Shown here piece after piece: positions 7,793 through 54,603 of a stretch of DNA of 57,136 nucleotides; positions within the stretch are counted from its first letter, which is position 1; every line of letters begins with the position of its first letter. A model generated the notes under the pieces. That model saw nothing but the letters and a program-made list of their open reading frames with translations, was not told the origin of the DNA and searched no databases. Location of the stretch: IMG/VR virus record IMGVR_UViG_3300037307_000387, positions 1 through 57,136 of that record. One strand, given 5' to 3'. A program made the translations under genes and the position numbers. Origin of the DNA: a virus. Taxonomy: Duplodnaviria; Caudoviricetes.

Positions 7793-7956
7793 TGTCGCCG
7801 CCGAGAAAGGACAAGCTCCGCGACGCGCTCGACGCCAACAGCCTCCGTGACGTGATGCTCAACCTCGGCGGAAGCGCACTGCTCAGGCGGGTCAAGCGCC
7901 GAAGGCTGGCCGCCGCGAGGGCAGAAAAGGCCAAGGGCAAAGAGAAGGAGACCTGA
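7792..7956 (+). CDS. Small basic protein (MSPPRKDKLRDALDANSLRDVMLNLGG...)
   Basis: TGATG coupling; its stop lies inside the next start-associated motif; below the ORF-track size cutoff. Confidence 0.55.
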   Translation: MSPPRKDKLRDALDANSLRDVMLNLGGSALLRRVKRRRLAAARAEKAKGKEKET

Positions 7957-7957
7957 C

Positions 7958-9448
7958 ATGAGGACGCTGATCGAGGTCGTGCAGGACGCGAGGGACGCCG
8001 GGACGCCGCTGCTGGCCGTGACGACGACGGACCAGCAGGCTGCCGTGTCGGCCATCTGCAAGGCGAGCAACGGCGCGCCCAAGCTCGCGTGGGACGCCGT
8101 GCGCGGGATCATCCCGCTCAACGAGACGGCGAAGACGTTCTGCAAGTCGAAGTGGGCCGACGACGCCCAACGCGCGATGGAGACGGCCAACCCGCAGACG
8201 GCCCTCGAGGTGGCGGGCCGGCTGCCCGACGACTCCCAGTTCTTCGCCCTCAACGCTCACCGCTTCGTGCAGGACGCCTTCTTCTCGACCGCGGTGCTGG
8301 CGCTGCGCGACACGAACAAGCTGACGGGCCGCACGCTCATCCTGCTCGGCCCCGCCTTCGACCTGCCCGCCGAGCTTCAGCAGGACGTGGTCGTCATCGA
8401 CGACCCGATCCCGACCGACGCGGCGCTGCGCGAGAAGATCGCGAAGCTCTCCTCGGCGAACGGCCTCGCGGTGCCCGACGACGTGCTCGACCGCGCGGTC
8501 GACGCGACGCGCGGGCTGAGCCTCTTCGGCTGCGAGCAGGTGACCGCGATGTCGCTCCGCAAGGTCGGCATCGACCTCGACTCGCTGTGGGAGCGCAAGC
8601 GAACGCAGATCAGCCAGACGAAGGGGCTCAGCCTCCAGCGCACCGGCCCGTCGCTCGACGACATCGGCGGCAACGCCGCGATCTGCACCTACGGCCGGCG
8701 CGTCGTCGCCGGCAAGCAGCCGCCCCGCGCCCTCTACCTCGTCGACGAGATCGAGAAGTACATGGCCGGCTCGGGCTCTGGCGGCGACTCCTCGGGCGTC
8801 TCGGCCGACTACCTCGGCGTGCTGCTGCGCGAGATGGAGGACAACGGGCACGACGGCCTGATCTGCGTGTCGCCCCCGGGATGCGGCAAGACGATGTTCG
8901 CCCGCGCGCTGGCCGTCAGCGCGAAGCTGCCGCTGCTTCAGTTCGACTTCGGCGCGATGAAGGGCCGCTACGTCGGCGACTCCGAGGGCGCGATCCGGCA
9001 GGCGTTCAAGGTGGCGAACGGCGTGGCCGCGGGCCGCGCGCTCGTCGTCGCCACCTGCAACCGCCTCGACTCGCTGCCGCCCGAGCTGCGCCGTCGCTTC
9101 ACGAACGGCATCTGGTACTTCGACCTCCCCGACGCGCAGGAGCGCCTCGCGATCTGGAAGCTCCAGATCGCCGCGCACGGCCTCAGCGCTTCGCCGGCCG
9201 GCGTCACCTTCGACGAGGGCTGGACGGGCGCGGAGATCCGCAACTGCTGCCGCATCGCCTCGCGCCTCGACATCCCGCTCGCCGAGGCCGCGTCCTACGT
9301 CGTGCCCGTCAGCCAGAGCGACCCGAACAGCATCGAGGCGCTCCGCACGCTGGCCGAGGGCCGGTTCCTTTCGGCGAACCGCCCGGGTACCTACACGCGC
9401 GCCATCGCGCCGGAGGGCGGCGAGCGTCGCGTGCGCCGCGAGTCGTGA
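7958..9448 (+). CDS. Ycf46/SpoVK-type AAA+ ATPase with permuted Walker motif order
   Basis: Ycf46-like N-terminal inactive domain; SLDDIGG, LYLVDEIEK, SPPGCGKT, pore loop RYVGDSE, sensor-1 VVATCN, LPPELRRRF, FDLPDAQER. Confidence 0.9.
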   Translation: MRTLIEVVQDARDAGTPLLAVTTTDQQAAVSAICKASNGAPKLAWDAVRGIIPLNETAKTFCKSKWADDAQRAMETANPQTALEVAGRLPDDSQFFALNAHRFVQDAFFSTAVLALRDTNKLTGRTLILLGPAFDLPAELQQDVVVIDDPIPTDAALREKIAKLSSANGLAVPDDVLDRAVDATRGLSLFGCEQVTAMSLRKVGIDLDSLWERKRTQISQTKGLSLQRTGPSLDDIGGNAAICTYGRRVVAGKQPPRALYLVDEIEKYMAGSGSGGDSSGVSADYLGVLLREMEDNGHDGLICVSPPGCGKTMFARALAVSAKLPLLQFDFGAMKGRYVGDSEGAIRQAFKVANGVAAGRALVVATCNRLDSLPPELRRRFTNGIWYFDLPDAQERLAIWKLQIAAHGLSASPAGVTFDEGWTGAEIRNCCRIASRLDIPLAEAASYVVPVSQSDPNSIEALRTLAEGRFLSANRPGTYTRAIAPEGGERRVRRES

Positions 9449-9810
9449 TCCTCCTCCGGCGCGTGCGGCTGGAGTTCAAGGCCGGCTCGTCCGACAAGTT
9501 CTACCTCGCAGAGGCCTACGAGAACCCCGACGGTACCGCCCAGCTCTCCTTTCGGTGGGGCCGGCGCGGCTCCGTCGGGCAGGAGAAGGTCGAGGAGTGC
9601 GACACGGTCGGCTATGCCTTGTGGGCGCTGGTCCAGAAGGTCGAGGAGAAGCGCAACGGCGGCTACGTCGTCGTCGAGGACCGCAGGGGCTACGGCGCGC
9701 TGCGAAGGCCGGTCGCTCGCGCGGCATCCGATCCGCGCAACGACCGGCGGGATGTGACGGCCGACGCCGTGTTCCCGATGGACGGTGAACGCAGGGTGAG
9801 GCTCAAGTAG
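9445..9810 (+). CDS. WGR-domain protein
   Basis: GSSDKFY...FRWGRRGSVGQ...EKRNGGY; GTGA overlap with the ATPase stop. Confidence 0.85.
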   Translation: MILLRRVRLEFKAGSSDKFYLAEAYENPDGTAQLSFRWGRRGSVGQEKVEECDTVGYALWALVQKVEEKRNGGYVVVEDRRGYGALRRPVARAASDPRNDRRDVTADAVFPMDGERRVRLK

Positions 9811-9821
9811 GGAGGTGCGAG

Positions 9822-10145
9822 ATGCCGTGCGATCAGGTGAGAACGACGACGCTCAAGGCTCCAGCCGCGAACGTCGAGACGATGGCCGAGGCGCTGCGCT
9901 CGCTCGGCTACTACGCCGTGGTGACGCGCGCCGGGACGATCGGGGTGAGCCGCGACAGCCTGCGCGGCGAGTGGGCTGCCGGCAAGCTGACCCTCTACGG
10001 CAACGTCGATGCGAGCGCGGAGACGAGCGCGCTGGCGAAAGCCTACGCCAAGCAGTCGATCATCCAGACGGCGAAGCGGCAGGGCTGGCAGCTGCGCTTC
10101 AAGGCCGACGGCGACATCGAGGCCACGCGCCGGAGCTTCGCATGA
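9822..10145 (+). CDS. DUF1257/Ycf35-like protein
   Basis: GGAGGT RBS; MAEALRSLGY...LAKAYAKQSIIQTAKRQGW pattern; next to a Ycf46-type ATPase. Confidence 0.6.
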   Translation: MPCDQVRTTTLKAPAANVETMAEALRSLGYYAVVTRAGTIGVSRDSLRGEWAAGKLTLYGNVDASAETSALAKAYAKQSIIQTAKRQGWQLRFKADGDIEATRRSFA

Positions 10146-10301: not shown

Positions 10302-10502
10302 ATGGAAGACAAGATCACGTTCAGGGTGCTGGATGACGGCACCGTCCGCATCACGAGCCCGCGCATCAGCGGCGCGAACCACGCCTCGGCCGACGCGCTC
10401 GTCAAGGGTGTCGAGGGGCTCATGGCCGGCGACACGACCGTCCACCGCCGCACCGACCACGCGCACGCGCACGCCCACAACCACGAGCACTCGAAGAACT
10501 GA
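10302..10502 (+). CDS. DUF2997-like small protein with His-rich tail
   Basis: ITFRVLDDGTVRITSPRISG...ADALVKGVEGLMAG; HAHAHAHNHEH tail. Confidence 0.6.
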   Translation: MEDKITFRVLDDGTVRITSPRISGANHASADALVKGVEGLMAGDTTVHRRTDHAHAHAHNHEHSKN

Positions 10503-10515
10503 AAGGAGAGAGACG

Positions 10516-11499
10516 ATGACGAAGAAGAAGCCGTCCACGTCCACGAGGAAGCCCGAGCCCGCCACCCTCACCCCGACAGAGCGCGTTGCTGAGGGGACGT
10601 TCGTCCTCAACCTCACCGCACACGCCATTCGCACCAGCGCCCGCGTCAAGCGCGAGCAGGTCATCAAGATGGCCTCCGCCCTCTCGACCGACGAGGCGGC
10701 CCAGCGCGAGGGGGCCGACGAACTGTACGTCTCGAAAGAGCTACTGCGAGTCCCCGAGGTGGCCGCGATCATCAAGCAGATCGAGGACACCCGCTGGCTC
10801 ATCCGCAGCTCCGCCCTGCCCGTCCGCTTCCTCAAGGGCGGCCTGTACCTCTACCCCGTCACCAAGGTGGAGTGGGTCGAGGGGGAGCTGGCGAGGGCGC
10901 GGGTGCGGATCTCCGAGCTGTTCTCCGCGCTGGAGCCGCGGTGGGAGGAGATCCTCCGCGAGGACGAGGCTCGCCTCTCGCCCCTCGGCCTGTTCGACCC
11001 CGCCGACTACCCCACCCTGTCGTCCATCCGCGAGGCGACCCTCATCCGGCACAGCTGGCTTCGCTTCGAGGTGCCCACCAGCCTCAAGTCCATCAGCGTC
11101 GCCGTCTTCGAGGCTGAGCGCGAGAAGGCGAAGGCAATGTGGGCCGACGCGGTCGATCAGATCCGCTCCACCTACGCCACCACCCTGAACGACTTCATCA
11201 CCCGGCTGAAGGCTGCCATCATCCCATCCGAGGACGGCACGAAGCGCATCCTGCGGCAGTCGGTGGTCGAGAGGATGAAGCAGTTCCTTTCCGACTACAG
11301 GCTGCAGGACGTGACCGGCTTCGAGGAGCTGGCGACGCTGGTCGACAAGGCAAAGGCCGCGCTGGACGGGATCGACGCTGAGGTGCTGCGGACGGAGACG
11401 GACGCCCGAGAGCGCGTCTCGGTGGTGATGCAGGAGATCAGCGCGGAACTCGAACCGCTCGTCGACGAGGTCGTCCGCAAGGTCAACATCAACAAGTAG
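10516..11499 (+). CDS. DUF3150/DUF932-like helical protein
   Basis: AAAGGAG RBS; VSKELL...GGLYLYP...LFDPADYP pattern; long coiled C-terminus. Confidence 0.55.
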   Translation: MTKKKPSTSTRKPEPATLTPTERVAEGTFVLNLTAHAIRTSARVKREQVIKMASALSTDEAAQREGADELYVSKELLRVPEVAAIIKQIEDTRWLIRSSALPVRFLKGGLYLYPVTKVEWVEGELARARVRISELFSALEPRWEEILREDEARLSPLGLFDPADYPTLSSIREATLIRHSWLRFEVPTSLKSISVAVFEAEREKAKAMWADAVDQIRSTYATTLNDFITRLKAAIIPSEDGTKRILRQSVVERMKQFLSDYRLQDVTGFEELATLVDKAKAALDGIDAEVLRTETDARERVSVVMQEISAELEPLVDEVVRKVNINK

Positions 11500-12032: not shown

Positions 12033-12436
12033 TCAGCTTCGAGCGGACGACGTGCGCGTGCCAAAAGTGTGTCGAATGCTGCAAGCGCAAGCCCGGACCG
12101 CTGATCCTCTCCGACTTGGAGCGGCTCCGCGAGGCCGGAATCAACGCGGGCGACACGCTCGTCCAGTCGGAGGGCGGCATCTATGGAGCGGTGATCAACG
12201 GCCGCTTGCGCTTCATCCGCGTCCCGACAATCACGCCGCGTCGCGTGAACGGCCGGTGCATCTTTCTCGCCGCGGATCGCTGCCTCATCCACGACATTGC
12301 CCCGTTCGGCTGCGCCTACTTCGATACCCACATGCCAACGACGGAGTGGCGGCGGCGATCGATCGCGATGGCGAGCGATCAGGCCAGACCCGAATACCAG
12401 AGAGCGCGCGAACTGCTCAGAAAGGAGGGTGCATGA
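12029..12436 (+). CDS. YkgJ-like (CxxCxxCC) Fe-S/Zn cluster protein
   Basis: CACQKCVECC...RCIFL...CLIHDIAPFGCAYF. Confidence 0.75.
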   Translation: MISFERTTCACQKCVECCKRKPGPLILSDLERLREAGINAGDTLVQSEGGIYGAVINGRLRFIRVPTITPRRVNGRCIFLAADRCLIHDIAPFGCAYFDTHMPTTEWRRRSIAMASDQARPEYQRARELLRKEGA

Positions 12437-12630
12437 GACTGCGCGTCCGGCTCGAGGAGGGCCGCTATCCGCCGGTGACGGTCGCGTTCGCCGACACCAT
12501 CGAGGAGGCGCGGCGCATCGCGCTGACGACGATGGTGAGCGCGAGCCGCCCGTGCGCCACCGTCATCACCACCGACGACTACCACGAGATCGAGCGCCGC
12601 AGCACCGAGGCGCTATGGGAGGCACCATGA
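12433..12630 (+). CDS. Hypothetical protein
   Basis: AAGGAGG RBS; ATGA overlaps at both ends. Confidence 0.65.
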   Translation: MRLRVRLEEGRYPPVTVAFADTIEEARRIALTTMVSASRPCATVITTDDYHEIERRSTEALWEAP

Positions 12631-13517
12631 GGCGCTGGTCGAACTCGATGCTGTACACCGCGCAGCAGTGCGGCGAGCGCTTTCGCCGCAAGTACATCGA
12701 GCGCGACTTCCGGCCGAGCGGCATCCGCGCCAAGCGCGGCATCGCCGTCCACAAGGTCGCCGGCAAGTCGCACGTCCGGCAGCTGGCCGGCAAGGAGCGC
12801 GGCGACCCGCGCGAGGTCTACCTCGATGCCGTGCTGTCGGACGAGGAGGCGAAGGACGTGGCCGCGACCGAGTTCGACCACTCGGTCAAGGAGTACGGCG
12901 TCGCGTGGAGCGACGACGAGAAGGCGGTCGGCGTCGAGAAGGTGGCCGGCGAGGAGAAGGACACGGCGGTGCGAATGGCGGGCTACTACGTCGGCAAGGT
13001 CGCGCGCGGCGTCGATCCGCTGGCTGTCGAGCGCTCGCTGACGATCAAGCCGGCGGGGCTCGATGTCGAGATCCTCGGCATCATCGACCTCGTCGGCGAG
13101 GAGCCCGCGCCGGCCCTCGACCCGTTCGCCGAGGAGCCCGAGCGCCGCGTGAGGGGCGTCAACATCGAGGTCGTCCACGACCTCAAGACGAGCGACAAGC
13201 GCCCCCGCGAGGACGCGATCGACTCCAATCAGCAGCTGACGATGTACTCGCTGCTGCGCGCGGCGCAGACAGGGAAGCCGCCCGACCGCGTGCGCCTGAC
13301 GACGCTCGTCAACTCGCGGCAGGGGGTCGTGACGGTGACGCAGACGGGCACGCGCTCGCTCGAAGACCTCAATGCCGTCGCCGCGAGGATCGACGCGAGC
13401 ATCCGCATGGTCGAGGCCGGCGCGTTCGTGCCCGCGAACCCGGATGCGTGGTGGTGCAGCGAGAAGTTCTGCGAGTACTGGTCCGAGTGCAAGTTCGCGC
13501 TCGGGCGCAAGCGATGA
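12627..13517 (+). CDS. PD-(D/E)XK (RecB/Cas4-like) exonuclease
   Basis: SNSML...QCGERF, GIAVH, VE, GIIDLV, DLKT, QLTMY, C-terminal WWCSEKFCEYWSEC. Confidence 0.85.
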   Translation: MRRWSNSMLYTAQQCGERFRRKYIERDFRPSGIRAKRGIAVHKVAGKSHVRQLAGKERGDPREVYLDAVLSDEEAKDVAATEFDHSVKEYGVAWSDDEKAVGVEKVAGEEKDTAVRMAGYYVGKVARGVDPLAVERSLTIKPAGLDVEILGIIDLVGEEPAPALDPFAEEPERRVRGVNIEVVHDLKTSDKRPREDAIDSNQQLTMYSLLRAAQTGKPPDRVRLTTLVNSRQGVVTVTQTGTRSLEDLNAVAARIDASIRMVEAGAFVPANPDAWWCSEKFCEYWSECKFALGRKR

Positions 13518-13553
13518 GAGAGAGCAGCACGCGGGAAGGCATGGAGGTGCCTG

Positions 13554-14420
13554 ATGAACAATACGATTCAGCCGGGTGAGGTTCGTTTGATGACGCTGGA
13601 GCAGCTGGCGGCCCTGAACGTGGACTACGCTCGCGACGGCGGATACCAGCGCGACAGGTCCGAGAAGGAGATCGCCCTCATCCGCGCCCGCTACGGGCCG
13701 CTCTCCGAGCGGAAGTGGCTGCCGTACGTCATAGTGGGCCGGCGCGCCGACGGCGACTACTGCATCGACGGCAACGGGCGTCGTCTGTGCGCCATCGCGG
13801 AGGGGACGCCGCTATGGGTCGTGATCGTTCCCGGCACGACCACGCGCGAGATCGAACGCGGCCTGTTCTGCTGGATCAACGGCGGCGGGAAGGAAGTGAC
13901 CAAGGTCGAATTGGTCCGCGCTCACGACGGCCTCATCGCAACGGCCGTCCGCGAGATGCATTCCACCACGCTGCCTCAGATCTCGTGGCAGAAGTCGGGC
14001 GGGCTGCGCGGTGACGACACCTTGGGCCACATCAAGGCCGACCTCGCGGCCTCGGTGATCTTCACGGGGGCGACGGGGGAGATCGCCTCCAAGGTGTATC
14101 CGCGCGTGCTGGAGGCCACGGAGGTCAAGACCAAGGTGCAGCGAACGATGGGCTGCTGCGCTCTGCTGAACGTGTGCGAGGTGTTCGCCGACCAGCGGAT
14201 CTACCGCGAGCCGGCGCTCGTCGTGGCTGAGGCCACCTTCCACCGGGGTGGGCGGCGCTTCACGAAAGACGAGATCGACGCGCTGCACTCGCTGCCGTGG
14301 CTGAAGCAGAAGGACAAGGGCGAAGCTCGGAGCAATTTCAACTGGGACAAGCTGCGCCGCATGGTGCGCAACGCGCTCGACGCCAAGCAGCATCGGACCC
14401 CGCCGCGGCGTAGCGCCTAG
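13554..14420 (+). CDS. ParB/DGQHR-like domain protein
   Basis: YQR motif and YCIDGNGR (variant of IDGQHR), E..LF..IN; GGAGGT RBS. Confidence 0.6.
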   Translation: MNNTIQPGEVRLMTLEQLAALNVDYARDGGYQRDRSEKEIALIRARYGPLSERKWLPYVIVGRRADGDYCIDGNGRRLCAIAEGTPLWVVIVPGTTTREIERGLFCWINGGGKEVTKVELVRAHDGLIATAVREMHSTTLPQISWQKSGGLRGDDTLGHIKADLAASVIFTGATGEIASKVYPRVLEATEVKTKVQRTMGCCALLNVCEVFADQRIYREPALVVAEATFHRGGRRFTKDEIDALHSLPWLKQKDKGEARSNFNWDKLRRMVRNALDAKQHRTPPRRSA

Positions 14421-14613
14421 GATAATGATCGACTACGGCGTGAAGTGGGCGGCTCTCGCGCCCTCGGGAGAGATGCGCCGACTGCGGCGCGAACGAGCTG
14501 CACGACGAGGGGCGGCGGCTCATCATCGAGGTCCTGACGTGCACCGCTTGCGGGCGACGGGTCTGCAAGCGGTGCCACTTCAGGCACCTCATCGACGGGC
14601 ACAAGGAGAAGGC

Positions 14614-15513
14614 ATGAGCGAGACGAAGACGCTGGTGAAGCCGGACGAGAAGATGATCGCGACGCTGGAGAAGCTGAAGCCACAGCTGCGCGCGGCGCTG
14701 CCGCGCTCGATGGACGCGGACCGCTTCTCGCGCGTCGTGCTGACCGAGATCCGCCGCAACCCGAAGCTGCTGGAGTGCAACCCGCAGTCCTTCCTCGGGG
14801 CCGTCTTCACGGCGGCTCAGATCGGGCTGGAGATCGGCGGGCACCTCGGCGAGGCGTTCATCCTGCCGTTCAACAACCGCCGCAAGGGCACGGTCGAGGC
14901 GACGCTGGTCGTCGGCTACAAGGGACTCGTCAAGCTCATGTGGGAGAGCGAGCAGATCGCCTCGCTCTCCGAGGTCGTCGTCCACGCGAAGGACACGATC
15001 GAGTTCACGCGCGGCGACACCGAGGCGATCAAGCACGTCCCCTACGTCCCGCCCGTCGAGTTGCTGGCGAAGGTGGGCGGCGAGGGCTCGAAGCTCACGG
15101 CCGCCGAGAAGGAGGCGCTCGACCCGGGGCCGGCCGTCGCCTACTACGCGATCATCGAGATGAAGAACGGCGGTCGCCGCCGCGCCTTCATGTGGGTGAG
15201 CGAGGTGCAGCAGCACCGCGAGCGTTACGGCCGCGAGGGAGCCGACAGCGTGTGGGCGTCGAACTTCGACGCGATGGCGCTCAAGACGGTCATCCGCAAG
15301 GCCGCCAAGCTCGCCCCGCGCGCGGTCGAGCGCCCGTCGCTGCAGCAGGCGATCGCGCTCGACGAACTCGCGGAGGCCGGCGTCGGGCAGGAACTCATGC
15401 TGCCCGCCGAGGTGCAGCAGGCGATCGACGGCGGCTCGCCGGCCGCGGCCGGGCTGTCGCTCGCGTCGTTCACGGCCGGCGCGGTGGTCGAATCGAGGGA
15501 CGACACGAAGTAG
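14614..15513 (+). CDS. recT: RecT-family single-strand annealing protein
   Basis: ALPRSMDADRFSR...NPKLLECNPQSFLGAV...GEAFILPF...GYKGLVKL...W..NFDAMALKTVIRK. Confidence 0.92.
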   Translation: MSETKTLVKPDEKMIATLEKLKPQLRAALPRSMDADRFSRVVLTEIRRNPKLLECNPQSFLGAVFTAAQIGLEIGGHLGEAFILPFNNRRKGTVEATLVVGYKGLVKLMWESEQIASLSEVVVHAKDTIEFTRGDTEAIKHVPYVPPVELLAKVGGEGSKLTAAEKEALDPGPAVAYYAIIEMKNGGRRRAFMWVSEVQQHRERYGREGADSVWASNFDAMALKTVIRKAAKLAPRAVERPSLQQAIALDELAEAGVGQELMLPAEVQQAIDGGSPAAAGLSLASFTAGAVVESRDDTK

Positions 15514-28178: not shown

Positions 28179-31085
28179 CTACTTCGCCTTGCGGGCAAGC
28201 TCCTCGAAGCGCGTGAGGAAGCCGCGGTAGTTCTGATCGAGCGCCCGCTCGACGGCCGCCGTGACGTACTGCCCGAAGGCGCGCTGCCCCTCGACCGTCT
28301 GCACCGCGCTCTCCTGCGTGATGTTGATGACGGGCGAGTAGACCATCGGTTGCGCCGCGCTGACGTTCGCCCCCGGGGGCGTCTCGCCGCGCGGCGTCAC
28401 CGACACGAACTCCGGCCCCGACTCACCGGCGAGGAACCGCGTCGGCTTGTTTACCCATCCGCTGTAGCCCTCGGCCGCCGCGACCTCTTCGCCGCCCATG
28501 TAGTCGCCGCCGCCGCCGCCATAGCTTGGGACGCGGTACTGGTGCGAGGCGTTCGCGCCGCGGCCGATCTCGTCGGCGAGGCCCTTCGCGCCACCGTACG
28601 CGCGCTCCAGAGCCGCCGCGACGCGCTCCATCGCGTTCGCCGCGCGGACGAGCGGATCCTCCTTGAACGCCATCCCGTTCGCCTCGGCGGTCTCCTTGAG
28701 CTTGAGGAGGTTCTCGTCGAGCGGGATGCCGAGCGCTTGGTACTGCGCGATGATCTCGGAGATGGCCGGGCCGACCGCGCGGATCGCCGCCTGCTGCGCC
28801 GCCGCGCCCTCGAGCCCCTGCGCCTGCGCCGCCGCGAGAGCCTGATTGTACTGGTCGGTCGCGACGATGCTGGCATTCGAGAGGTCGGTGATCGAGATGA
28901 CCCCCATGTCGGCCATCCCCTTGAGCGCCTGCGCCAGCCCGACCGCGCCCTCGGTCGCGCCCGCGAACGCCTCGCTCGTCGCGAGGTTCATCTGCTGCTG
29001 GATCGGAGCGAGGTAGGCCAGCATCGCCTCGCTCGCGCCCTCGGTCAGCTTCTTGAACGCCTCGCCGAGCGCGCTCGATGCGGCGACGAGCCCCTTCTCC
29101 TTGACGGTCGCCCAGAAGACGGAGGAGAACAGCCCCGCCTGCGCCATCGCCCCCGCCTCGGTCGCGGGCTTGAGCGACGTGATCATCTTCGTGATCCCGC
29201 TCGCGGCGGTGTCGTAGCCGGCGACGCGGCGCTGCTCTGCCTCCTCCTCCCGCCGCTTCTTCTCCGCGGCCTCGGCCTCCTTGCGCTTGCGCTCCTCCTC
29301 CTTCTTCTTCTTCTTGTTCCCGAAGATGCCGCCGATGAGCCCCCCGATCCCGCCGACGACCGCGCCGATCGGCCCGCCGATCGAGAAGCCCGCCATCGCG
29401 CCGCCGGCGGCACCCTGAATGCCCGCGCCAGCCGTGCCGCCGATGAGCCCGCCGATCTGCCCCACACCCCCAGCGATGGCACCGAAGCGCGCCGCCGGGT
29501 CCATCTTTTCCCACCCCTTGAAGCTCTGCGTGATGTTGCCGATGACCTGCGCCACGTCGCCGAACTTTCCGCCTATCGCGCCCGCGAGCAGCGACACGCC
29601 CTGCAGGAGCGTTTCCCACTTGAAGGTCTTCTTCGTGATCGCGTCGAGGTACTTCTGGCTCTCTGTCGACAGGGTCTTGACGATGGGCGCAATCGAGTCG
29701 AGCGCGGTGCCCTTGCCGTCCTTGAAGAGTGTCGACTGCGCCTTGCCCAAGAGGTGCTCGATGTCGAACTGCCTGAGGTACTCTGGCGAGATCGTCTTCG
29801 CGACCGACGCGAACGGTGCCCGCAGCGAGGCGATCTTGTCCCGCTGCGCGAGCCCGTCCATCAGCTTGGCGATCTCTTTCGCCTGCTTGATCTGCTCCTT
29901 CGTCTGGACGGTCGCGTTGCTGGTCGCCACCCCGGCCTCGGCCATGGCGCTCGCGTACTGCTTCGCCGCACCCATCCCCGACGTGAAGGCGATCACGCCC
30001 TCGCGCATAGACTTGATCTGAGCGTCGGTCTCCTTTTGGAGGTTGCGGTTCTCGACCGCAGCGATCGACATCGAATCGCCGAGCGCAGTGAAGTGATCCT
30101 TCAGGCCCTTGGTCGGGGCGAACTTCGCGAGCATGCGGGCAGCGTCGCGGCCGGTCTCATTGATCGCCGCGAAGGCCCCCGCGAACGTCGACCGCATCTC
30201 CAAGATCCGGGCGATGAACTCGACGATGAAGGTGAGCGCGAAGCGGATTCCCTCGGTCAGCCCGATCCTGATGGCGTCCTTGTTGTCGAGGAGGAACTTC
30301 GCGAGCTTCGAGAGCTGAAGCAGGACAAGCTGCATGACGGGCAGCAGCGCCTCCCCCATAGCGATCTGGAGGTTCTTCGTCTGCTCCTTGAGGAGCCTCA
30401 GCTGGTTGACCGGCGAGTCCATCGTCCTCGCGAGGTCGCCTTGCGCTTTGCCGGTCTGGCTGAGAATGGCCTGATACCGCGCCTGAACCTTCTGCTGCTC
30501 CGTTAGCTCCTCGCCCACGCGCGCGATCCCCATGGCGTAGGCGGTCTGCTTCACCGTGTTGGCGTCGACGAGGATGCCGAGCTGCCTCAGCGGCTCCATC
30601 TCCCCGACGAGCCCTGATCGCAGCTTGTTGAAGGCCACGTCCATCGGCAGGTTGTAGAACGAGGCCATGTCGCCGGCCAGCTTCGTCATCCCGGTCGACA
30701 TCTCGAAGGCCGACTGCTTCGTCAGCCCCATGCTCTGCGTCATCGTGTAGAGCATCCCGGCGTTCTTGCGAAGCTCGTACTCGTTAAGCCCTGTCGCTTT
30801 TTGGATCTCTTGGGACCAGCGCCTCGCCGCCGCCGCCATCTCACCGAAACTGACCTCGAAGAGGTTCTCCGACTCCTGAGCCTCGGCCGCCGCACCGAGG
30901 GCAGCCTGCCCCACGCTGAACAGGCTGCCCGCGACCTTCATCGCCCCCTGCGTGATCGCTGACCCGAAGCCCAGCCCGATCCCGCCGAGGATGGAGTCGA
31001 ACGCCTTCGACTCGCTCTTGGCCTTGTTCAGGCCAGAGAGGAAGTCGCGGGTGTCGAGGTCGAGGCGTACCTCAAGGGCATCCAC
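28179..31085 (-). CDS. Tape measure protein
   Basis: 968 aa, Ala/Gly-rich helical; LAGDMASFYN...GEMEPLRQLGI...AQGDLART; GxxxG segment; C-terminal AGESGPEFV. Confidence 0.92.
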   Translation of the reverse strand: MDALEVRLDLDTRDFLSGLNKAKSESKAFDSILGGIGLGFGSAITQGAMKVAGSLFSVGQAALGAAAEAQESENLFEVSFGEMAAAARRWSQEIQKATGLNEYELRKNAGMLYTMTQSMGLTKQSAFEMSTGMTKLAGDMASFYNLPMDVAFNKLRSGLVGEMEPLRQLGILVDANTVKQTAYAMGIARVGEELTEQQKVQARYQAILSQTGKAQGDLARTMDSPVNQLRLLKEQTKNLQIAMGEALLPVMQLVLLQLSKLAKFLLDNKDAIRIGLTEGIRFALTFIVEFIARILEMRSTFAGAFAAINETGRDAARMLAKFAPTKGLKDHFTALGDSMSIAAVENRNLQKETDAQIKSMREGVIAFTSGMGAAKQYASAMAEAGVATSNATVQTKEQIKQAKEIAKLMDGLAQRDKIASLRAPFASVAKTISPEYLRQFDIEHLLGKAQSTLFKDGKGTALDSIAPIVKTLSTESQKYLDAITKKTFKWETLLQGVSLLAGAIGGKFGDVAQVIGNITQSFKGWEKMDPAARFGAIAGGVGQIGGLIGGTAGAGIQGAAGGAMAGFSIGGPIGAVVGGIGGLIGGIFGNKKKKKEEERKRKEAEAAEKKRREEEAEQRRVAGYDTAASGITKMITSLKPATEAGAMAQAGLFSSVFWATVKEKGLVAASSALGEAFKKLTEGASEAMLAYLAPIQQQMNLATSEAFAGATEGAVGLAQALKGMADMGVISITDLSNASIVATDQYNQALAAAQAQGLEGAAAQQAAIRAVGPAISEIIAQYQALGIPLDENLLKLKETAEANGMAFKEDPLVRAANAMERVAAALERAYGGAKGLADEIGRGANASHQYRVPSYGGGGGDYMGGEEVAAAEGYSGWVNKPTRFLAGESGPEFVSVTPRGETPPGANVSAAQPMVYSPVINITQESAVQTVEGQRAFGQYVTAAVERALDQNYRGFLTRFEELARKAK

Positions 31086-36552: not shown

Positions 36553-37884
36553 TTACGCCTCGACCTTCTGCGCGAGGAACGCGACGGTGCGGACGAGCGC
36601 GCCGCCGACGCGCGCGGTCGGCAGGAACGCGACGTTGGGCGCGAAGCGCTCGATGAGCCGCTGCACGCGCAGGTCGCGGCGCGAGGCCACGACGTAGTAG
36701 CGCGGGTTGCCGAAGAGGACCGGGTACGCCGAGGCAGCGACCGACGGCAGGTGCTCGGTCATCCAGACCTTCTTCCCGAACAGCGTGCCGGGGATCTGGC
36801 CCGCGTACATGATCGGGTTGTTCGCGGAGTCCTTCAGCTTCAGGATCGCGCCGAAGGTCAGCGACTTCATGTACCAGACCGCGCCCTCGCGGTACTGCGC
36901 GGGCAGGGTCATCATGAGGTCGATGAGCCCGTTGTAGGTCATCAGCGAGGCGTCGCCCGTCTTCACGGACGACACGCCCGTGCCGATGTAGTCGAAGATG
37001 CCGCGCGGCTTGCCGATGCCGTCTCCGCGCAGGAAGGCGTAGTCCCAGTCGAGCGCCTGCGTCTCGGCGATCGCCTCCTGCAGGATCGACTCCAGCGGCA
37101 CCGCGGCGTCCTCGAGCAGCGACGGGTCGACGACGACCGCGTCCGGCTGCCACTCGTGGACGGGGATGCGCTCCTGCCCGAACGTCGGCTGGTTCTGGAC
37201 CGTGGGGGCGGTGCCGTCGGTGCCGACCGCGCCGGCCGGCCGCCACGTCCCCGAGTAGCCCGTCGACCACGGGTCGGTCCCGCCGACGATCGACGGGAAG
37301 ACGAGCGTGTTGGACGAGCAGGGCACGACGCGCACGCCCGACGCCAGCGCGACGCTGATGCCCGCCATGTTCTTGATGACCTCGGCCTTGAAGTCCTCGG
37401 TGACGAGCGCGCCGCCGAGCGTGCCGATGGAGCCGACGAGCGCCTGCCGCTCCTCGGGCTTGAGCGCAGTCGTCTGCGCCGAGAGCTTCTCCCGCGCCGT
37501 GATGTAGGCGGGGTGCGACGCGCCGTGGCGGAAGTAGGCGTTCTGGCACTCGCGGATCCCCTCCGCGAAGCGCTCGGCCGTCTCCTTCGACACGACCCCC
37601 TCGGCCCGCGAGCCCTCGCGATACGCCTCGCTTGGGTCGTTGGGCAGGCCGTTGATGACCTCGTTCGCGCGCGCTTCGGCGGCGATCATCTGGTCGATGC
37701 GCTGGAGCGTGCCGGCGAAGACCTCCACGTCCTTCATCGCCTTGTCGAACTGCTCCTTGAGCTCGGCCGCGTTGGCCTCGCCCTTGAGTTCGGCGTCGGT
37801 CAGCTTGACGCCGATCTCGCGCGCGTCGGCCTGCGCCTTGCCGAGTCGCTCACGCGCTTCCTTCTGCTGGACCTGAAGGGACAT
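36553..37884 (-). CDS. HK97-fold major capsid protein with N-terminal delta domain
   Basis: Coiled-coil N-terminus; GGALVTEDF, LLEDAA, AFLRGDGIGKPRGI, LKLKDSANNPI, ARVGG. Confidence 0.93.
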   Translation of the reverse strand: MSLQVQQKEARERLGKAQADAREIGVKLTDAELKGEANAAELKEQFDKAMKDVEVFAGTLQRIDQMIAAEARANEVINGLPNDPSEAYREGSRAEGVVSKETAERFAEGIRECQNAYFRHGASHPAYITAREKLSAQTTALKPEERQALVGSIGTLGGALVTEDFKAEVIKNMAGISVALASGVRVVPCSSNTLVFPSIVGGTDPWSTGYSGTWRPAGAVGTDGTAPTVQNQPTFGQERIPVHEWQPDAVVVDPSLLEDAAVPLESILQEAIAETQALDWDYAFLRGDGIGKPRGIFDYIGTGVSSVKTGDASLMTYNGLIDLMMTLPAQYREGAVWYMKSLTFGAILKLKDSANNPIMYAGQIPGTLFGKKVWMTEHLPSVAASAYPVLFGNPRYYVVASRRDLRVQRLIERFAPNVAFLPTARVGGALVRTVAFLAQKVEA

Positions 37885-37912
37885 CTCGCTTCTCCTCTCG
37901 TTCAAGCGGCCT

Positions 37913-48307: not shown

Positions 48308-51300
48308 CTACATGCTCCACAGGTAGCTTTCGCTGATCCCCGTCGCGGCCGCGAGGTTGGCGATGAAGGCGGTCTTCGTTACCCCTTTCGGCTTGCTCGC
48401 CTTGAAGGCTGCGATCTGCGAGTACGCCGACTTGAGAACCGACGGGCTGTACTTCTTTGACTTATCGAGCCAGCTTGGATACTGGAGCCCGCCCGTTCCG
48501 GCGGGCGGCGTGGCCGCGACCCCACCGATCGTCTTCACCGGCTTCTTGTTCGCGAGCAGGTAGTCCTGCGACAAAGCCGAGGACGTCGAGCCGCGAGGGG
48601 CTGGCGTACCGGCCTTGACGAGCACGTAGTTCCCACCCTGAAAGACAATGGCGTCCTTCGACCAGACGGTCCCGTCCAACACATGGCCGCTGCCTTCGGG
48701 CGGCTTGCTGAAGATGCGCACACTCGCCGCGCTCGGCAGGTTGGGGGGCTTCGGCGTGAAAGCCGGCTTCGGGATGCCCATAAGTTCGTCGTAGTCCATG
48801 TGGTACGGCGTCTGATGCGCGATTGCCTTCTGCGTCAGCGACGGTGCCTTCGCGCCGGGCGGGGCGACCATCCCCTTGGGGACGAGGACGTAAGCGCCTG
48901 ACTTTGGCGGGGTGAAGCCATCAGGGTGGGTGTACTTCATCGTCTCACTGAGGTATGTGGAGCTGACCTTGACGTAGGTGTCTTTCTTGAAGACGAACCC
49001 CTCGACCAGCGCGTAATCCTTGATGTTCGAGATGGAGGTCGGCGGCTTGCTGGTGTAGTTGGACGTGATCCAAGGATGCGGCGACAGCTTGGGGGTGATC
49101 TTGGCGGGGGGGGTCTTGGCGTAGGGGCCGATCTTGAGGTTGTAGGCGACCATCCAAGCGGTGCTCTCGTTCATCCCGTGGGCCTTAGCGACAGCCTCCA
49201 CGTTGCCACCGTCGTTGATCCCCTTCAGGACACCGGCCATCTGGTCCTTGGTGTACTTCTTCCCGTGGTAGTTCTTGAGGTAGGAGTCGGCGTCGGCGGG
49301 GAGGTGGTAGATCTGCTTCCCCGACGGCACGTTGACCTTCGAGACGGTCACTGGTGGGACGACGCTCGACAGCGGCACCTTCACGACACCCGCCTTCGGC
49401 GCGAGCGATGGGTTCTTGTTCAGGTAGTCAGTGAGGTTGAGCGGCTTCGCGCCCCACCCGGTCGGCTTGCTGACAGGAACTACTCCGTGGGGGATGTGCA
49501 GGTTGCTGCCGAAGACGCCGGCCTCGAAGTTCTTCCCGTGCAGAACGAAGAACTCGTGCTCGTCGGCATAGCCGCTGTCGTGGATGGTCGCGCTCAGGTC
49601 GGTCGAGAAGAGGATTGACGACGGCCTCACGTCGCGCTGATAAATGCCGTGGGTGTTCCAGTTCTTGGCGACATGCTTCTGTGTGGTGTAGCCCTCGACG
49701 GCCATGTTCGCTGTGTACTTCTTATGAACCCCACGGAAGAGGACGATCCGGTCGTTGTCGGTGATACCGGCCGCGGCGAGGTCGAGCTGCGTCTCGCGGT
49801 AGCAGATTTTTACGCCGTAGACGGAAATCCTCGACGGATCGTCATCGGTGATACCGCTTTTGCTGAGCATCCCCTCAGCGCCGAGCCCCTTCTTCGCCGC
49901 TGCCCGCAGCTCCTTCGCGCCTTCAGACTGCGCGTCGCCCTTCCAGCTGTCGATGTAATCACTTACGTGCCTCTTCGCGACGTGGTAGAGGTCGCTGTTC
50001 GGATTTGTGGGGGTGCCGTTGGCGTCAGGCCTCGGGTGGAAGGCATCGTCCCAGTTGTCGAGCCCCCACTTCAGCCCGGAGGCTTTGTTTACGCCGATGA
50101 CGCTGGTCGAGGTCGCGTCGGCACACGCCATCGCGGCGGCTGGGGTGAGGGTAGCGGGCTTCGGCTCCAGCATCTTGGGGTGCTTCGCGCTGACCGGCAG
50201 ACCGGTGGTGAGGTTGTAGTACTTCCCCGGGATCGGTGGCAGCCCAGCAGACTTGTCCAGCTCGGGCAGGCGCGATTCGAGGTAGAGCCGCCGCGCCTTC
50301 AGCGTCTCCGCCAACTCATTCTTTAACTCGCCAAGCTTGCCGCCGAACTCGTTGACGATGTGGTCGATCTCTTCCGGGGAGACCTTGAGAACGTGCTCGC
50401 GGATCCCGTTCGCCACGTCCGCGTCCGTCGTGTTGCTGAAAAGGTAGGCCGCCGCGTAGTTCTTGTTGGTATCTCGGAGTGAGTCGATCTCGCCCACCGT
50501 GTTGCCGAACGCCTTCCCCTTCGGCTCCCCCATTCCCCGGTACAGGAGAGCACCGCCGGACTCGATGCGGGTCGCCATCTTCGTGCCGTCGGTGTGCGTG
50601 GCTTGGAGAATGTTGTCGCCTTTCGGGCCAGCGACATCCCAGTTCGCGAGCCAAGCGTCCGTCGCGAACCCCGCCTTGACGGCGACGTTGTCGATGTTCG
50701 CGCTGCCGCTGTGGTCGAGGAGTTGGGAGGCGAGGCGTCGCTCGCCGTTGACGAGAACGACCTTGGTGTTGGCGTGAGGGATGCCGGCGGCGCGATACAG
50801 CGCCCCGGCGATGATCTCGTTGTCGAGCGCATCGGCGTGGTCGGGCGTCTTGACGTACCACAGGACGTTGTTCTCGTCGGAGTAGATTCCTGCCTTCGAG
50901 TGCCCGCCAAGCGAGCCGGTCTTCTCCAGATTCCACTTCCCAACGATCTCGACCTCTGGAGGCTTCTTCCACGAGGTGGCGTCCCCGCCTGGCGCTCCGA
51001 TGAAGATGTGCCTCCCCCCCTTCGTGATCCACGCGCCACCGAGAAGGTTCGCGCCGGCCATCGCCTCCTCTGGCCCCGAACCGCGGTCGGGCTCCCGCCG
51101 CCACCCCGGCTTCGTCTCGACGAGGACGACGGAGCAGCGGCAGCGGGGGTGTGGCTCGGGGGGGGAGAAGAAGCGGTCGTCGAAGTACTCGTCGACCGGG
51201 ACCTCGCGGCCGTCGAGGTCCATGCAGGTACCGCAGGTCCGCTCGTCGTCGGCAGCCACCCACAGCTTGTGCCAGTGCCGCTTCCCTCCCGGCAGCTTCT

Positions 51301-51682
51301 TGTCGGCGAAGAGCTTCCCCCACGCTGCCTGTTGGCCGAGCGCGTGCGCCATGCGCGTCTCGTGCTCAGCGATCAGGTTCGCGCGCTCGCGAAGGAGCTT
51401 GCCACGGAGCTTGTCGAGATCCTTCTCCAGCGCCTTGCCCTTGAGCTTGCCCTCGGCGAGCAGGCGCTGACGAGCCCTCTCAACCGTTTCAGCCTGTTGG
51501 CCGGTGAGGCCGATGCTATTGAGGATGGAGGTGGGGGAGATGGCCTCCTGCCTGCCGTTGATTACCTTGAGGATCTCGGAGCGCACGACATCGCGCACCT
51601 GCTTCTCGATCCTCCGTGTCTCCAGCTTGACGCGGGAGTTGATGACGTCCTGCCACCTCGGCTTGATCGCGAAAGCTTCCAC
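48308..51682 (-). CDS. MuF (SPP1 gp7-like) head protein fused to kinase-like, ART-like and HTH domains
   Basis: RANLIAEHE...KLWVAADDERTCGTC..LDG...PHPRCRC (MuF); YVK..NE..DAWLANWD..NIL..RIESGG; LFRG..YTT..EHEFFVL. Confidence 0.85.
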   Translation of the reverse strand: MEAFAIKPRWQDVINSRVKLETRRIEKQVRDVVRSEILKVINGRQEAISPTSILNSIGLTGQQAETVERARQRLLAEGKLKGKALEKDLDKLRGKLLRERANLIAEHETRMAHALGQQAAWGKLFADKKLPGGKRHWHKLWVAADDERTCGTCMDLDGREVPVDEYFDDRFFSPPEPHPRCRCSVVLVETKPGWRREPDRGSGPEEAMAGANLLGGAWITKGGRHIFIGAPGGDATSWKKPPEVEIVGKWNLEKTGSLGGHSKAGIYSDENNVLWYVKTPDHADALDNEIIAGALYRAAGIPHANTKVVLVNGERRLASQLLDHSGSANIDNVAVKAGFATDAWLANWDVAGPKGDNILQATHTDGTKMATRIESGGALLYRGMGEPKGKAFGNTVGEIDSLRDTNKNYAAAYLFSNTTDADVANGIREHVLKVSPEEIDHIVNEFGGKLGELKNELAETLKARRLYLESRLPELDKSAGLPPIPGKYYNLTTGLPVSAKHPKMLEPKPATLTPAAAMACADATSTSVIGVNKASGLKWGLDNWDDAFHPRPDANGTPTNPNSDLYHVAKRHVSDYIDSWKGDAQSEGAKELRAAAKKGLGAEGMLSKSGITDDDPSRISVYGVKICYRETQLDLAAAGITDNDRIVLFRGVHKKYTANMAVEGYTTQKHVAKNWNTHGIYQRDVRPSSILFSTDLSATIHDSGYADEHEFFVLHGKNFEAGVFGSNLHIPHGVVPVSKPTGWGAKPLNLTDYLNKNPSLAPKAGVVKVPLSSVVPPVTVSKVNVPSGKQIYHLPADADSYLKNYHGKKYTKDQMAGVLKGINDGGNVEAVAKAHGMNESTAWMVAYNLKIGPYAKTPPAKITPKLSPHPWITSNYTSKPPTSISNIKDYALVEGFVFKKDTYVKVSSTYLSETMKYTHPDGFTPPKSGAYVLVPKGMVAPPGAKAPSLTQKAIAHQTPYHMDYDELMGIPKPAFTPKPPNLPSAASVRIFSKPPEGSGHVLDGTVWSKDAIVFQGGNYVLVKAGTPAPRGSTSSALSQDYLLANKKPVKTIGGVAATPPAGTGGLQYPSWLDKSKKYSPSVLKSAYSQIAAFKASKPKGVTKTAFIANLAAATGISESYLWSM

Positions 51683-51691
51683 GGGAACCCC

Positions 51692-51937
51692 TCAGGAGGA
51701 CGGGACCTCGACGACACCGCCCCCCTTCTCGATCTCGGCCATCTCCTTGGCCAGCCGCCTCCTGAACTCAGCCGCGTAGGGCGTGTCCTTTACGGCCGGC
51801 GGAAGGCCGAAGGCGACCTCGCGGGTGATGCGGGCGATGTCGTCGGTGTCGATGGTCTCGATGTCGCCGAGCTGCCCCTCCTCCCACTCCTCGAACTCGT
51901 CGTCGGGAATCTCCTCGCCTTCGACTGTTACGCTCAT
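51692..51937 (-). CDS. Small acidic protein (candidate antitoxin/immunity protein)
   Basis: ATGA overlap with the portal-zeta stop; EEIPDDEFEEWEEG. Confidence 0.7.
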   Translation of the reverse strand: MSVTVEGEEIPDDEFEEWEEGQLGDIETIDTDDIARITREVAFGLPPAVKDTPYAAEFRRRLAKEMAEIEKGGGVVEVPSS

Positions 51938-54504: not shown

Positions 54505-54603
54505 GGGTCCTCCCGCGCTCGCTCGGCGCTCGACGTGCGGGAGCATCCTTGGCGGTGGCCCGCCGCTCTCGCCTCGCGCTGCCGGCGGTCGTCAGCGAGG
54601 GAG

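Follow-up and report, generated by a model that had tools for sequence, protein, structure and literature searches.

A conserved phage AAA protein family in which Walker B precedes Walker A: evidence for an internal permutation of the ATPase core

The viral record IMGVR_UViG_3300037307_000387, a linear stretch of 57,136 bases, was analysed over its whole length (hereafter the window), with emphasis on a gene for an AAA-type ATPase located at positions 7958-9448 of the plus strand. Stop codon included, this gene translates without internal stops into a protein of 496 amino acids (aa), here referred to as P0001. An AAGGAG box is situated about 8 nucleotides (nt) 5' of its ATG, and its G+C content at third codon positions (GC3) was 0.97. 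The gene belongs to the rightward early/DNA-metabolism arm of the phage, in which a helix-turn-helix gene, an exonuclease and a RecT gene are found downstream. Two open reading frames (ORFs) overlap it in other frames, at 8089-9810 (plus strand, 573 aa) and 7892-9178 (minus strand, 428 aa). They were not treated as genes because both are rich in Arg, Ala, Gly and Pro, as predicted for a wrong-frame reading of DNA with 70% G+C.

Along the chain of P0001, the motifs of an AAA ATPase came in the order SLDDIGG, Walker B, GDSSG, Walker A, pore loop 1, sensor 1 and arginines. The original prediction, made from the bare sequence, had reported this precedence of Walker B over Walker A with every catalytic motif intact, and all the motifs that it quoted were recovered in the protein where it had read them. 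The N-terminal alpha/beta domain (residues 1-230, nt 7958-8647) is homologous to that of the Corndog gp96-like family described below and is devoid of Walker motifs. The next segment (232-257, nt 8651-8728), delimited from AlphaFold2 secondary structure, consists of SLDDIGG (232-238), helix a0 (240-251) and a linker into the Walker B strand. It leads into the transposed block (258-299, nt 8729-8854; nodes 346-387 of the canonical-family profile presented below), which holds strand b3, Walker B, the GDSSG loop and helix a3 (281-296). Its Walker B, LYLVDE (259-264, L259 at nt 8732; the first part of LYLVDEIEK), fits the pattern hhhhDE, with D263/E264 encoded at nt 8744-8749, and the GDSSG loop (276-280, nt 8783-8797) occupies the position of pore loop 2. 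A second block (300-357, nt 8855-9028; nodes 287-342 of the same profile) contains b1, Walker A, a1, b2, pore loop 1 and a2. Walker A, SPPGCGKT (305-312, nt 8870-8893, S305 at nt 8870), fits GxxxxGK[ST] and includes K311/T312, while pore loop 1 was assigned to KGRYVG (335-340, nt 8960-8977), with RYVGDSE at 337-343. Strand b4 with sensor 1 (T366-C-N368 within VVATCN, 363-368), LPPELRRRF (373-381) and strand b5 make up residues 358-391 (nt 9029-9130). Within the RRR at 378-380, R379 and R380 (nt 9092-9097) are candidate arginine fingers by comparison with classical AAA proteins. FDLPD lies at 388-392, and a predicted helical lid with GWTGAEIRN (421-429) covers residues 393-466 (nt 9134-9355), according to AlphaFold2 helices and to the alignment with the lid of VAT in the Protein Data Bank (PDB). 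All these features are on the plus strand.

Searches of PDB sequences (phmmer) gave VAT, p97, Afg2 and Rix7 as the best matches (E down to 8e-20). Residues 299-358 of P0001 aligned to the stretch from Walker A to a2 of VAT/p97 and residues 342-436 to the stretch from a3 to the lid. A second Walker B after helix a2 was found neither in these alignments, where a gap or the sensor-1 strand faced the hhhhDE of canonical AAA proteins, nor in the AlphaFold2 model or with hidden Markov models (HMMs). The Pfam profile PF00004 scored 56.7 bits (cut-off 21.2) in two stretches, the best of which spans only profile positions 3-54. Linear profiles such as this one cover only part of the permuted domain, so that its Walker B is missed by automatic annotation, and such proteins could be miscalled as inactive. 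P0001 is a member of phrog_8638 (function not assigned; E 5.7e-42, in four stretches) in PHROGs. NCBIfam contains no specific model for it; the top match, IteA_antiphage, scored 40.2 bits where 510 would be required. Inspection by eye revealed no sensor-2 arginine motif. A GWTGAEI-type lid and an arginine-rich second region of homology are marks of the classical AAA clade. Judged by its residues and predicted fold, P0001 is a classical-clade AAA module, yet one that departs from the otherwise universal chain topology of this clade.

The displacement became apparent by comparison with a canonical family. A tblastn search of phage genomes yielded one full-length relative of P0001, gp103 of Tunturiibacter phage Tunturi_3, annotated as 'ATPase', as well as canonical AAA-ATPases that matched over part of their length, among them gp96 of Mycobacterium phage Corndog (NP_817947). 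In a BLASTP alignment of P0001 with Corndog gp96, the N-domains (116-240) and the AAA modules aligned at about 24% identity with two reciprocal gaps. Residues 258-298 of P0001 had no counterpart ahead of the Walker A of Corndog gp96, and a 40-residue block of Corndog gp96, its Walker B and following helix, had no counterpart after a2 of P0001. The two orphan blocks resembled one another. An HMM was then built from 115 Corndog gp96 relatives, all of which (115/115) carry Walker A ahead of Walker B. Its match to P0001 fell into four pieces: nodes 22-260 to residues 14-240 (E 8.4e-11), nodes 346-387 to residues 258-299 (E 1.3e-9), nodes 287-342 to residues 300-355 (E 1.2e-18) and nodes 385-523 to residues 358-479 (E 1.1e-15). 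A colinear full-length alignment to the Corndog gp96-like family therefore fails, the two middle pieces being swapped, as the original prediction had anticipated in expecting out-of-order local profile matches. This four-piece match defines the event: two adjacent blocks have cleanly traded places, and the ends of the domain are unmoved. An HMM restricted to the 44-residue Walker-B/a3 block of the same 115 relatives also matched P0001, at residues 260-295 (i-Evalue 1.4e-9).

The AlphaFold2 model of P0001, computed from a 148-sequence alignment, was of high confidence: the mean predicted local distance difference test (pLDDT) was 95.9, the predicted template modelling score (pTM) was 0.91, and region 250-300 had pLDDT values of 84-98. 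The ATPase core was predicted to contain exactly five strands (258-262, 299-304, 326-329, 361-367 and 385-387) and the helices a0 (240-251), a3 (281-296), a1 (311-321) and a2 (339-357), with the lid helices after them. The strands and helices of this monomer thus follow the succession b3-a3-b1-a1-b2-a2-b4 put forward from the sequence at the outset, with b5 next. The whole model also resembled two-tier AAA proteins. Foldseek aligned it over 533-608 columns to Cdc48, p97 and Rix7 in the PDB (E down to 2e-14; query TM-score, TMq, 0.34-0.56). Judged from this alignment, residues 1-230 probably represent a first tier that is AAA-like but degenerate and devoid of nucleotide motifs. Among viral models (BFVD), the best fold matches were phage proteins named in UniProt 'Uncharacterized AAA domain-containing protein ycf46' (TMq 0.59-0.69), aligned over 558-605 columns with E down to 3.6e-24 and 16-18% identity, for example A0A0U3CC34 of Pseudomonas phage SM1.

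Strand neighbourhood was addressed by mean-field direct coupling analysis of columns 225-445 in 480 sequences (effective number, Meff, 342; 23,436 pairs at a separation of at least 5), and the top 221 couplings were counted. Seven of them joined b3 and b4 (best I265-A365, rank 9; also V262-V363, rank 30), three joined b1 and b4 (best H298-A361, rank 45), two joined b3 and b2 (best L261-L326, rank 63) and two joined b1 and b5 (best D299-N383, rank 52). The pairs b3-b1, b3-b5, b2-b4 and b2-b5 had none each. This neighbour pattern reproduces that of the 5-1-4-3-2 sheet on which the original prediction was based, and it fits a placement of the moved strand b3 between b4 and b2, the canonical sheet being kept. 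The start of b3 was also coupled to the end of a2 (A258-A357, rank 2) and b3 to a1 (L261-A315, rank 3). Couplings between a3 and a2 (N296-N354, E292-N354, D284-E343) and between the GDSSG loop and pore loop 1 (S282-K335, S279-V339) were likewise those predicted by the canonical arrangement.

A coupling analysis is blind to the difference between contacts within a chain and contacts between chains. The b3-a3 unit could be domain-swapped into a neighbouring protomer, or be folded elsewhere with a differently built active site. Permutations arising via duplication often go through swapped intermediates. Several features speak against this reading. The monomer was modelled with confidence in the absence of any partner (pLDDT 95.9, and 84-98 for residues 251-300), and the linker between a3 and b1 comprises only about 2-3 residues (296 to 299), a length that suits a chain returning to the sheet it has just left. 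By our own topological reasoning, the new connections (a0-b3, a3-b1 and a2-b4) would join strands that are adjacent or two apart, the helices keeping their usual faces and the crossovers their right-handedness. A swapped or displaced unit is thus considered improbable.

The P0001 family is large. A word-indexed search gave 854 proteins at E <= 0.001 among 8,000 candidates scored, the best 120 of which cover 79-100% of P0001, homologues that span 96-100% of its length among them. A search of 1.84 billion cluster representatives gave 1070 matches at E <= 1e-30; the best 150 were nearly all full-length, with 38-67% identity. Loci of the permuted family amounted to 229 viral (IMG/VR), 167 genome (GTDB) and at least 510 metagenome loci. 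Conservation was evaluated in a MAFFT alignment of 264 proteins with 36-69% identity. E264, G308, K311, N368 and R380 were invariant, each in 264/264, and position 263 was D in 255 proteins and E in the other 9. Other sites were nearly as constant, namely G238 (262 of 264), R379 (261), T366 (258) and, in the pore-loop region, G340 (261) and S342 (261).

This conservation bears on the possibility that P0001 is an ATPase-dead scaffold or a nucleotide sensor, in which the permutation would be tolerated because catalysis is not needed. Pore loop 1 carries mostly Leu and not an aromatic residue, and the activity of P0001 is predicted only. Against this stands the invariance of the Walker A Lys, the Walker B Glu, the sensor-1 Asn and R380, a pattern expected of hydrolysis and not of binding alone. 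Inteins also target the P-loop and sensor 1: P0139, P0243 and P0255 carry one in the P-loop, directly behind the position equivalent to G308, and P0150 carries one in the sensor-1 strand, behind T366. These inteins are 278-401 aa long, start with Cys, end with His-Asn and contain Hint, Intein_splicing, LAGLIDADG or HNH domains (Pfam). As inteins usually occupy strongly constrained sites, their presence suggests that the P-loop and sensor 1 are under such constraint in the permuted family. Loss of catalysis is consequently held to be very unlikely.

The motif order was analysed in a wider set, in which the 264 proteins and 241 translations of loci from IMG/VR, GTDB genomes and metagenomes gave 486 distinct sequences, of which 481 were shorter than 620 aa and were retained. 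The Walker-B-block HMM matched 478 of the 481 (median i-Evalue 1.7e-11). The match was placed ahead of Walker A by regular expression in 473 of these, the other five being false positives of the expression, and the three members without an HMM match show EELEK, DELDK or DEFDK ahead of the P-loop by eye. Walker B thus precedes Walker A in 481/481 relatives, down to about 36-40% identity, including gp103 of the cultured phage Tunturi_3. The swapped order is more than a chance resemblance, since the block HMM on its own matches P0001 and nearly all family members. Other sequence data were also in agreement. A relative from another IMG/VR record (L003) is 93% identical to P0001 over residues 1-495. 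Logan contigs of two runs, possibly the source samples, cover positions 7900-9500 without a difference, and a diverged relative in a third run, belonging to another study, is represented by a contig of 15,098 bases that is colinear over 7932-9485 with 107 differences. The record is metagenome-derived and 73% complete, the comparison was made with assembled contigs and not with raw reads, and the source sample may itself have supplied the two contigs that match perfectly; a local misassembly, or a recent rearrangement that left a dead gene in one phage, is nevertheless refuted as next to impossible because the order is conserved family-wide in many samples and in an isolate phage, with colinear contigs and invariant catalytic residues in addition.

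Taken with a probability of roughly 85%, the reading that emerges from these sequence comparisons and the predicted model is that the AAA core of the P0001 family is active and has undergone a permutation that is real, conserved and accommodated within the chain. The permutation is non-circular and internal: the unit formed by b3, pore loop 2 and a3 has moved from between a2 and b4 to a position ahead of b1. The chain would run a0-b3-a3-b1-a1-b2-a2-b4-b5-lid with the canonical three-dimensional fold kept and a2 beside a3, so that the chemistry should match that of any AAA protein. K311 and T312 would hold the phosphates and Mg, D263 and E264 would activate water, N368 would sense the gamma-phosphate, and R379 and R380 would reach into the site of the neighbouring subunit. 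The protein would form a ring for remodelling or unfolding a substrate, its central channel lined by pore loops 335-340 and 276-280.

Regarding its origin, duplication followed by loss of the outer halves is a classical route to permutations. The observed order would be generated most simply in a Corndog-gp96/Ycf46-like ancestor if the segment from b1 to a3 was duplicated in tandem and the first Walker-A half and the last Walker-B half were then lost. Some observations weigh against the permutation of an active core or against this route. No protein with two Walker B blocks, as expected of an intermediate, was found among the 481 permuted or the 115 canonical sequences (0 in each). Two couplings are not predicted between strand neighbours of a 5-1-4-3-2 sheet, namely L362-N383 (rank 24), which connects b4 with the loop preceding b5, and a single pair between b1 and b2 (rank 194), and the strand order was inferred from couplings rather than read from the AlphaFold2 coordinates. 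The aromatic position of pore loop 1, typical of unfoldases, is occupied by Leu in 172 of the 264 aligned proteins. AAA_lid_3 (PF17862) scored 14.6 bits on P0001, under its Pfam cut-off of 27.2.

The closest family with which P0001 was directly compared remains the Corndog gp96-like one, distributed among cluster O mycobacteriophages and many metagenomic relatives. It has a homologous N-domain and the same classical AAA module, and shares with the permuted family sensor 1, LPPEL-R and the lid motifs. The loop and helix after Walker B are also alike, as seen from the Corndog-like consensus 'DEIEKAL.GA.SGSADGGVSADALGAIL' and the P0001 sequence 'DEIEKYMAGSGSGGDSSGVSADYLGVLL'. Both families are phage-borne and both bear inteins; the long Corndog-like members P0281 and P0283 carry HNH_3 and Intein_splicing domains. 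They differ in motif order, which is canonical in all 115 Corndog-like proteins, in sequence, with the roughly 24% identity to P0001 given above, and in gene neighbourhood. For the likeness to Ycf46 advanced in the original prediction, support came solely from how UniProt names the top fold matches in BFVD. The phage proteins so named share the two-part architecture of P0001, a comparison made by fold match at 16-18% identity. Cyanobacterial and plastid Ycf46 proteins have the canonical motif order.

The two-tier unfoldases Cdc48/p97/VAT, Rix7 and Afg2 resemble P0001 in Walker A and pore loop 1, in sensor 1 and the arginine-rich second region of homology, and in the predicted lid. In contrast to these proteins, the putative first tier of P0001 is without nucleotide motifs, its Walker B/a3 unit is on the opposite side of Walker A, and a Cdc48-type N-terminal substrate/adaptor domain is lacking. 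Re-ordered P-loop motifs have a precedent in GTPases of the YlqF/YjeQ type, in which the entire G domain is circularly permuted (G4-G5-G1-G2-G3) and the fold stays active. This is an analogy and not a membership: unlike in these GTPases, only an internal segment of the additional strand, catalytic glutamate (ASCE)/AAA core is displaced in P0001, and the domain termini are in place.

To our knowledge, the chain topology of AAA+ proteins, which are among the most studied protein folds, has been treated as invariant. In the full-text literature searched, neither a permuted AAA core nor an AAA/AAA+ protein whose Walker B precedes its Walker A was found to be described, in line with the initial impression that such a permutation had not been described; supplements and subscription journals were outside this scope, and an earlier description is possible. 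In the passages of PMC7824862, PMC10853773 and 10.64898/2026.10.19.760177 that contain the word 'permuted', it concerns methylases or FHA domains. The main text of the Tunturi phage paper (PMC11924767), the only one on a cultured phage with a family member, supplements being outside the scope, contains neither 'ATPase' nor 'AAA'. If the reading of an in-chain permutation is correct, the Walker B strand and helix a3 constitute a movable unit. The family would then offer a natural test of how strongly ATP-driven motors depend on the order of folding and on the connectivity of their loops, as well as a template for protein engineers interested in re-wired AAA modules.

The genes next to P0001 were compared in four sets of 80 loci each (viral, genome, metagenome and canonical-family), the metagenome loci having shorter flanks and including many short contigs. 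Downstream of the AAA gene and on the same plus strand, the window encodes a 107-aa protein tentatively labelled DUF1257 (Ycf35)-like (9822-10145), a 66-aa protein with a His-rich tail tentatively labelled DUF2997-like (10302-10502) and a 306-aa DUF3150-like protein (10579-11499). When the window proteins themselves were used in tblastn, relatives were found in 19 (downstream of the AAA gene), 25 and 66 (on the same strand) of the 80 viral loci, respectively. With family HMMs, the 306-aa family was found in 80/80 viral, 63/80 genome and 35/80 metagenome loci, the 107-aa family in 41/80, 6/80 and 19/80, and the 66-aa family in 31/80, 3/80 and 14/80. None of the three was found in the 80 canonical-family loci (0/80 each), a result obtained with HMMs of limited sensitivity there, as they were built from the neighbours of the permuted family.

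The 306-aa family was always encoded on the strand of the AAA gene in the viral loci. Pfam DUF3150 matched 19 of 50 of its members (best E 1.5e-11), and its matches in the Atlas were restricted to unnamed or DUF3150 viral clusters. The AlphaFold2 model of the DUF3150-like protein (pLDDT 91.8) consists mostly of long helices. Foldseek retrieved only generic helical bundles from the PDB (best E 0.05), none at E <= 0.001, and PHROGs gave no match for this protein or for the other downstream neighbours. Corndog gp95 was considered as a DUF3150-like relative and discarded, no relation being detectable (BLASTP E 14, hhalign probability 4%). In Tunturi_3, gp96 (L001:9690-10649), annotated as 'HNH endonuclease', matched the HMM of the DUF3150-like family at E 7e-89. 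On the strength of this sequence match, gp96 is probably mis-annotated and would act as the partner of gp103, the permuted AAA protein of this phage.

The labels of the two small neighbours are tentative because Pfam and hhalign signals are weak and the assignments rest mainly on position. Pfam DUF1257 matched 7 of 17 members of the 107-aa family, all under the cut-off (best E 0.0075), and DUF2997 matched 1 of 20 members of the 66-aa family (E 0.02). In Tunturi_3, by contrast with these weak signals, the pair of genes that comes next to the permuted AAA gene on its downstream side exceeded the Pfam cut-offs, gp102 for DUF1257 (32.3 bits) and gp101 for DUF2997 (29.1 bits). A pairing of DUF2997 and DUF1257 is known elsewhere, since a review of cyanobacterial ferredoxins lists a conserved cluster duf2997-ycf35(DUF1257)-fed7 (PMC4284462). 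As for the small families themselves, the N-terminal Met-Pro-Cys and W89 were invariant in all 17 sequences of the 107-aa family. The 66-aa family shows invariant D12, G13, H27, A30 and G43 and a conserved tail of alternating His (HxHxHxH), in which H55, H57 and H59 reach at least 90%; this tail may be metal-binding. The DUF2997/Ycf35 pair may also be linked to Ycf46.

P0001 would work with the DUF3150-like protein, and often with the small proteins labelled DUF1257-like and DUF2997-like. A role in remodelling, during early infection or in DNA metabolism, is suggested by the constancy of the DUF3150-like partner and by the location of the gene among early and recombination functions. A broader proposal can be made with a confidence slightly above even: the family would be the first natural non-circular permutation of an ASCE/AAA+ core, fixed a single time in a Ycf46/Corndog-gp96-like ancestor through duplication and deletion, with activity maintained since then in hundreds of lineages of phages that infect bacteria of soil and freshwater. 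It would also be the motor of an undescribed module, made up of the permuted AAA protein, the DUF3150-like partner and often the two small proteins, in which the DUF3150-like protein would serve as adaptor or substrate of the ring. The module part of this proposal has its own difficulties. Some of the viral loci scored with the neighbour HMMs had also served to build them, the DUF1257-like and DUF2997-like genes were detected in just 6/80 and 3/80 genome loci, and hhalign related the 107-aa family to gp102 and the 66-aa family to gp101 with probabilities of only 3% and 4%. If it holds, DUF3150, DUF1257/Ycf35 and DUF2997 would be tied to an AAA motor, and the cultured pair of Tunturi_3 and Tunturiibacter psychrotolerans, which carries the module, would make it testable.

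With respect to hosts, the best 80 genome-contig loci were mostly from metagenome-assembled genomes labelled Acidobacteriota (Bryobacterales, Terriglobia, Solibacter), as judged from titles without counting, and other labels, read in the same way, included Planctomycetota, Myxococcota and Nitrospirota among others. Many genome loci were on long contigs, consistent with prophages. The runs matching the window were labelled freshwater metagenome.

The record itself is a tailed-phage genome of about 68% G+C, with a CheckV completeness of 73%. PHROGs assigned, on the minus strand, the large terminase (151-1428), the tape measure (28179-31085), the major head protein (36553-37905) and the portal (51934-54546). 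Also on the minus strand, a 1124-aa protein (48308-51682) matched head-morphogenesis and minor-head (SPP1 gp7-like) PHROGs with residues 26-195, some 900 aa remaining without a match. On the plus strand, directly downstream of the AAA module, an exonuclease (12297-13517, phrog_69) is followed by a 288-aa ORF without assignment (13554-14420) and by a RecT-like annealing protein (14425-15513; phrog_148, E 3.9e-63), and the whole stretch 12297-15513 resembles a recombination module of the Red/RecET type.

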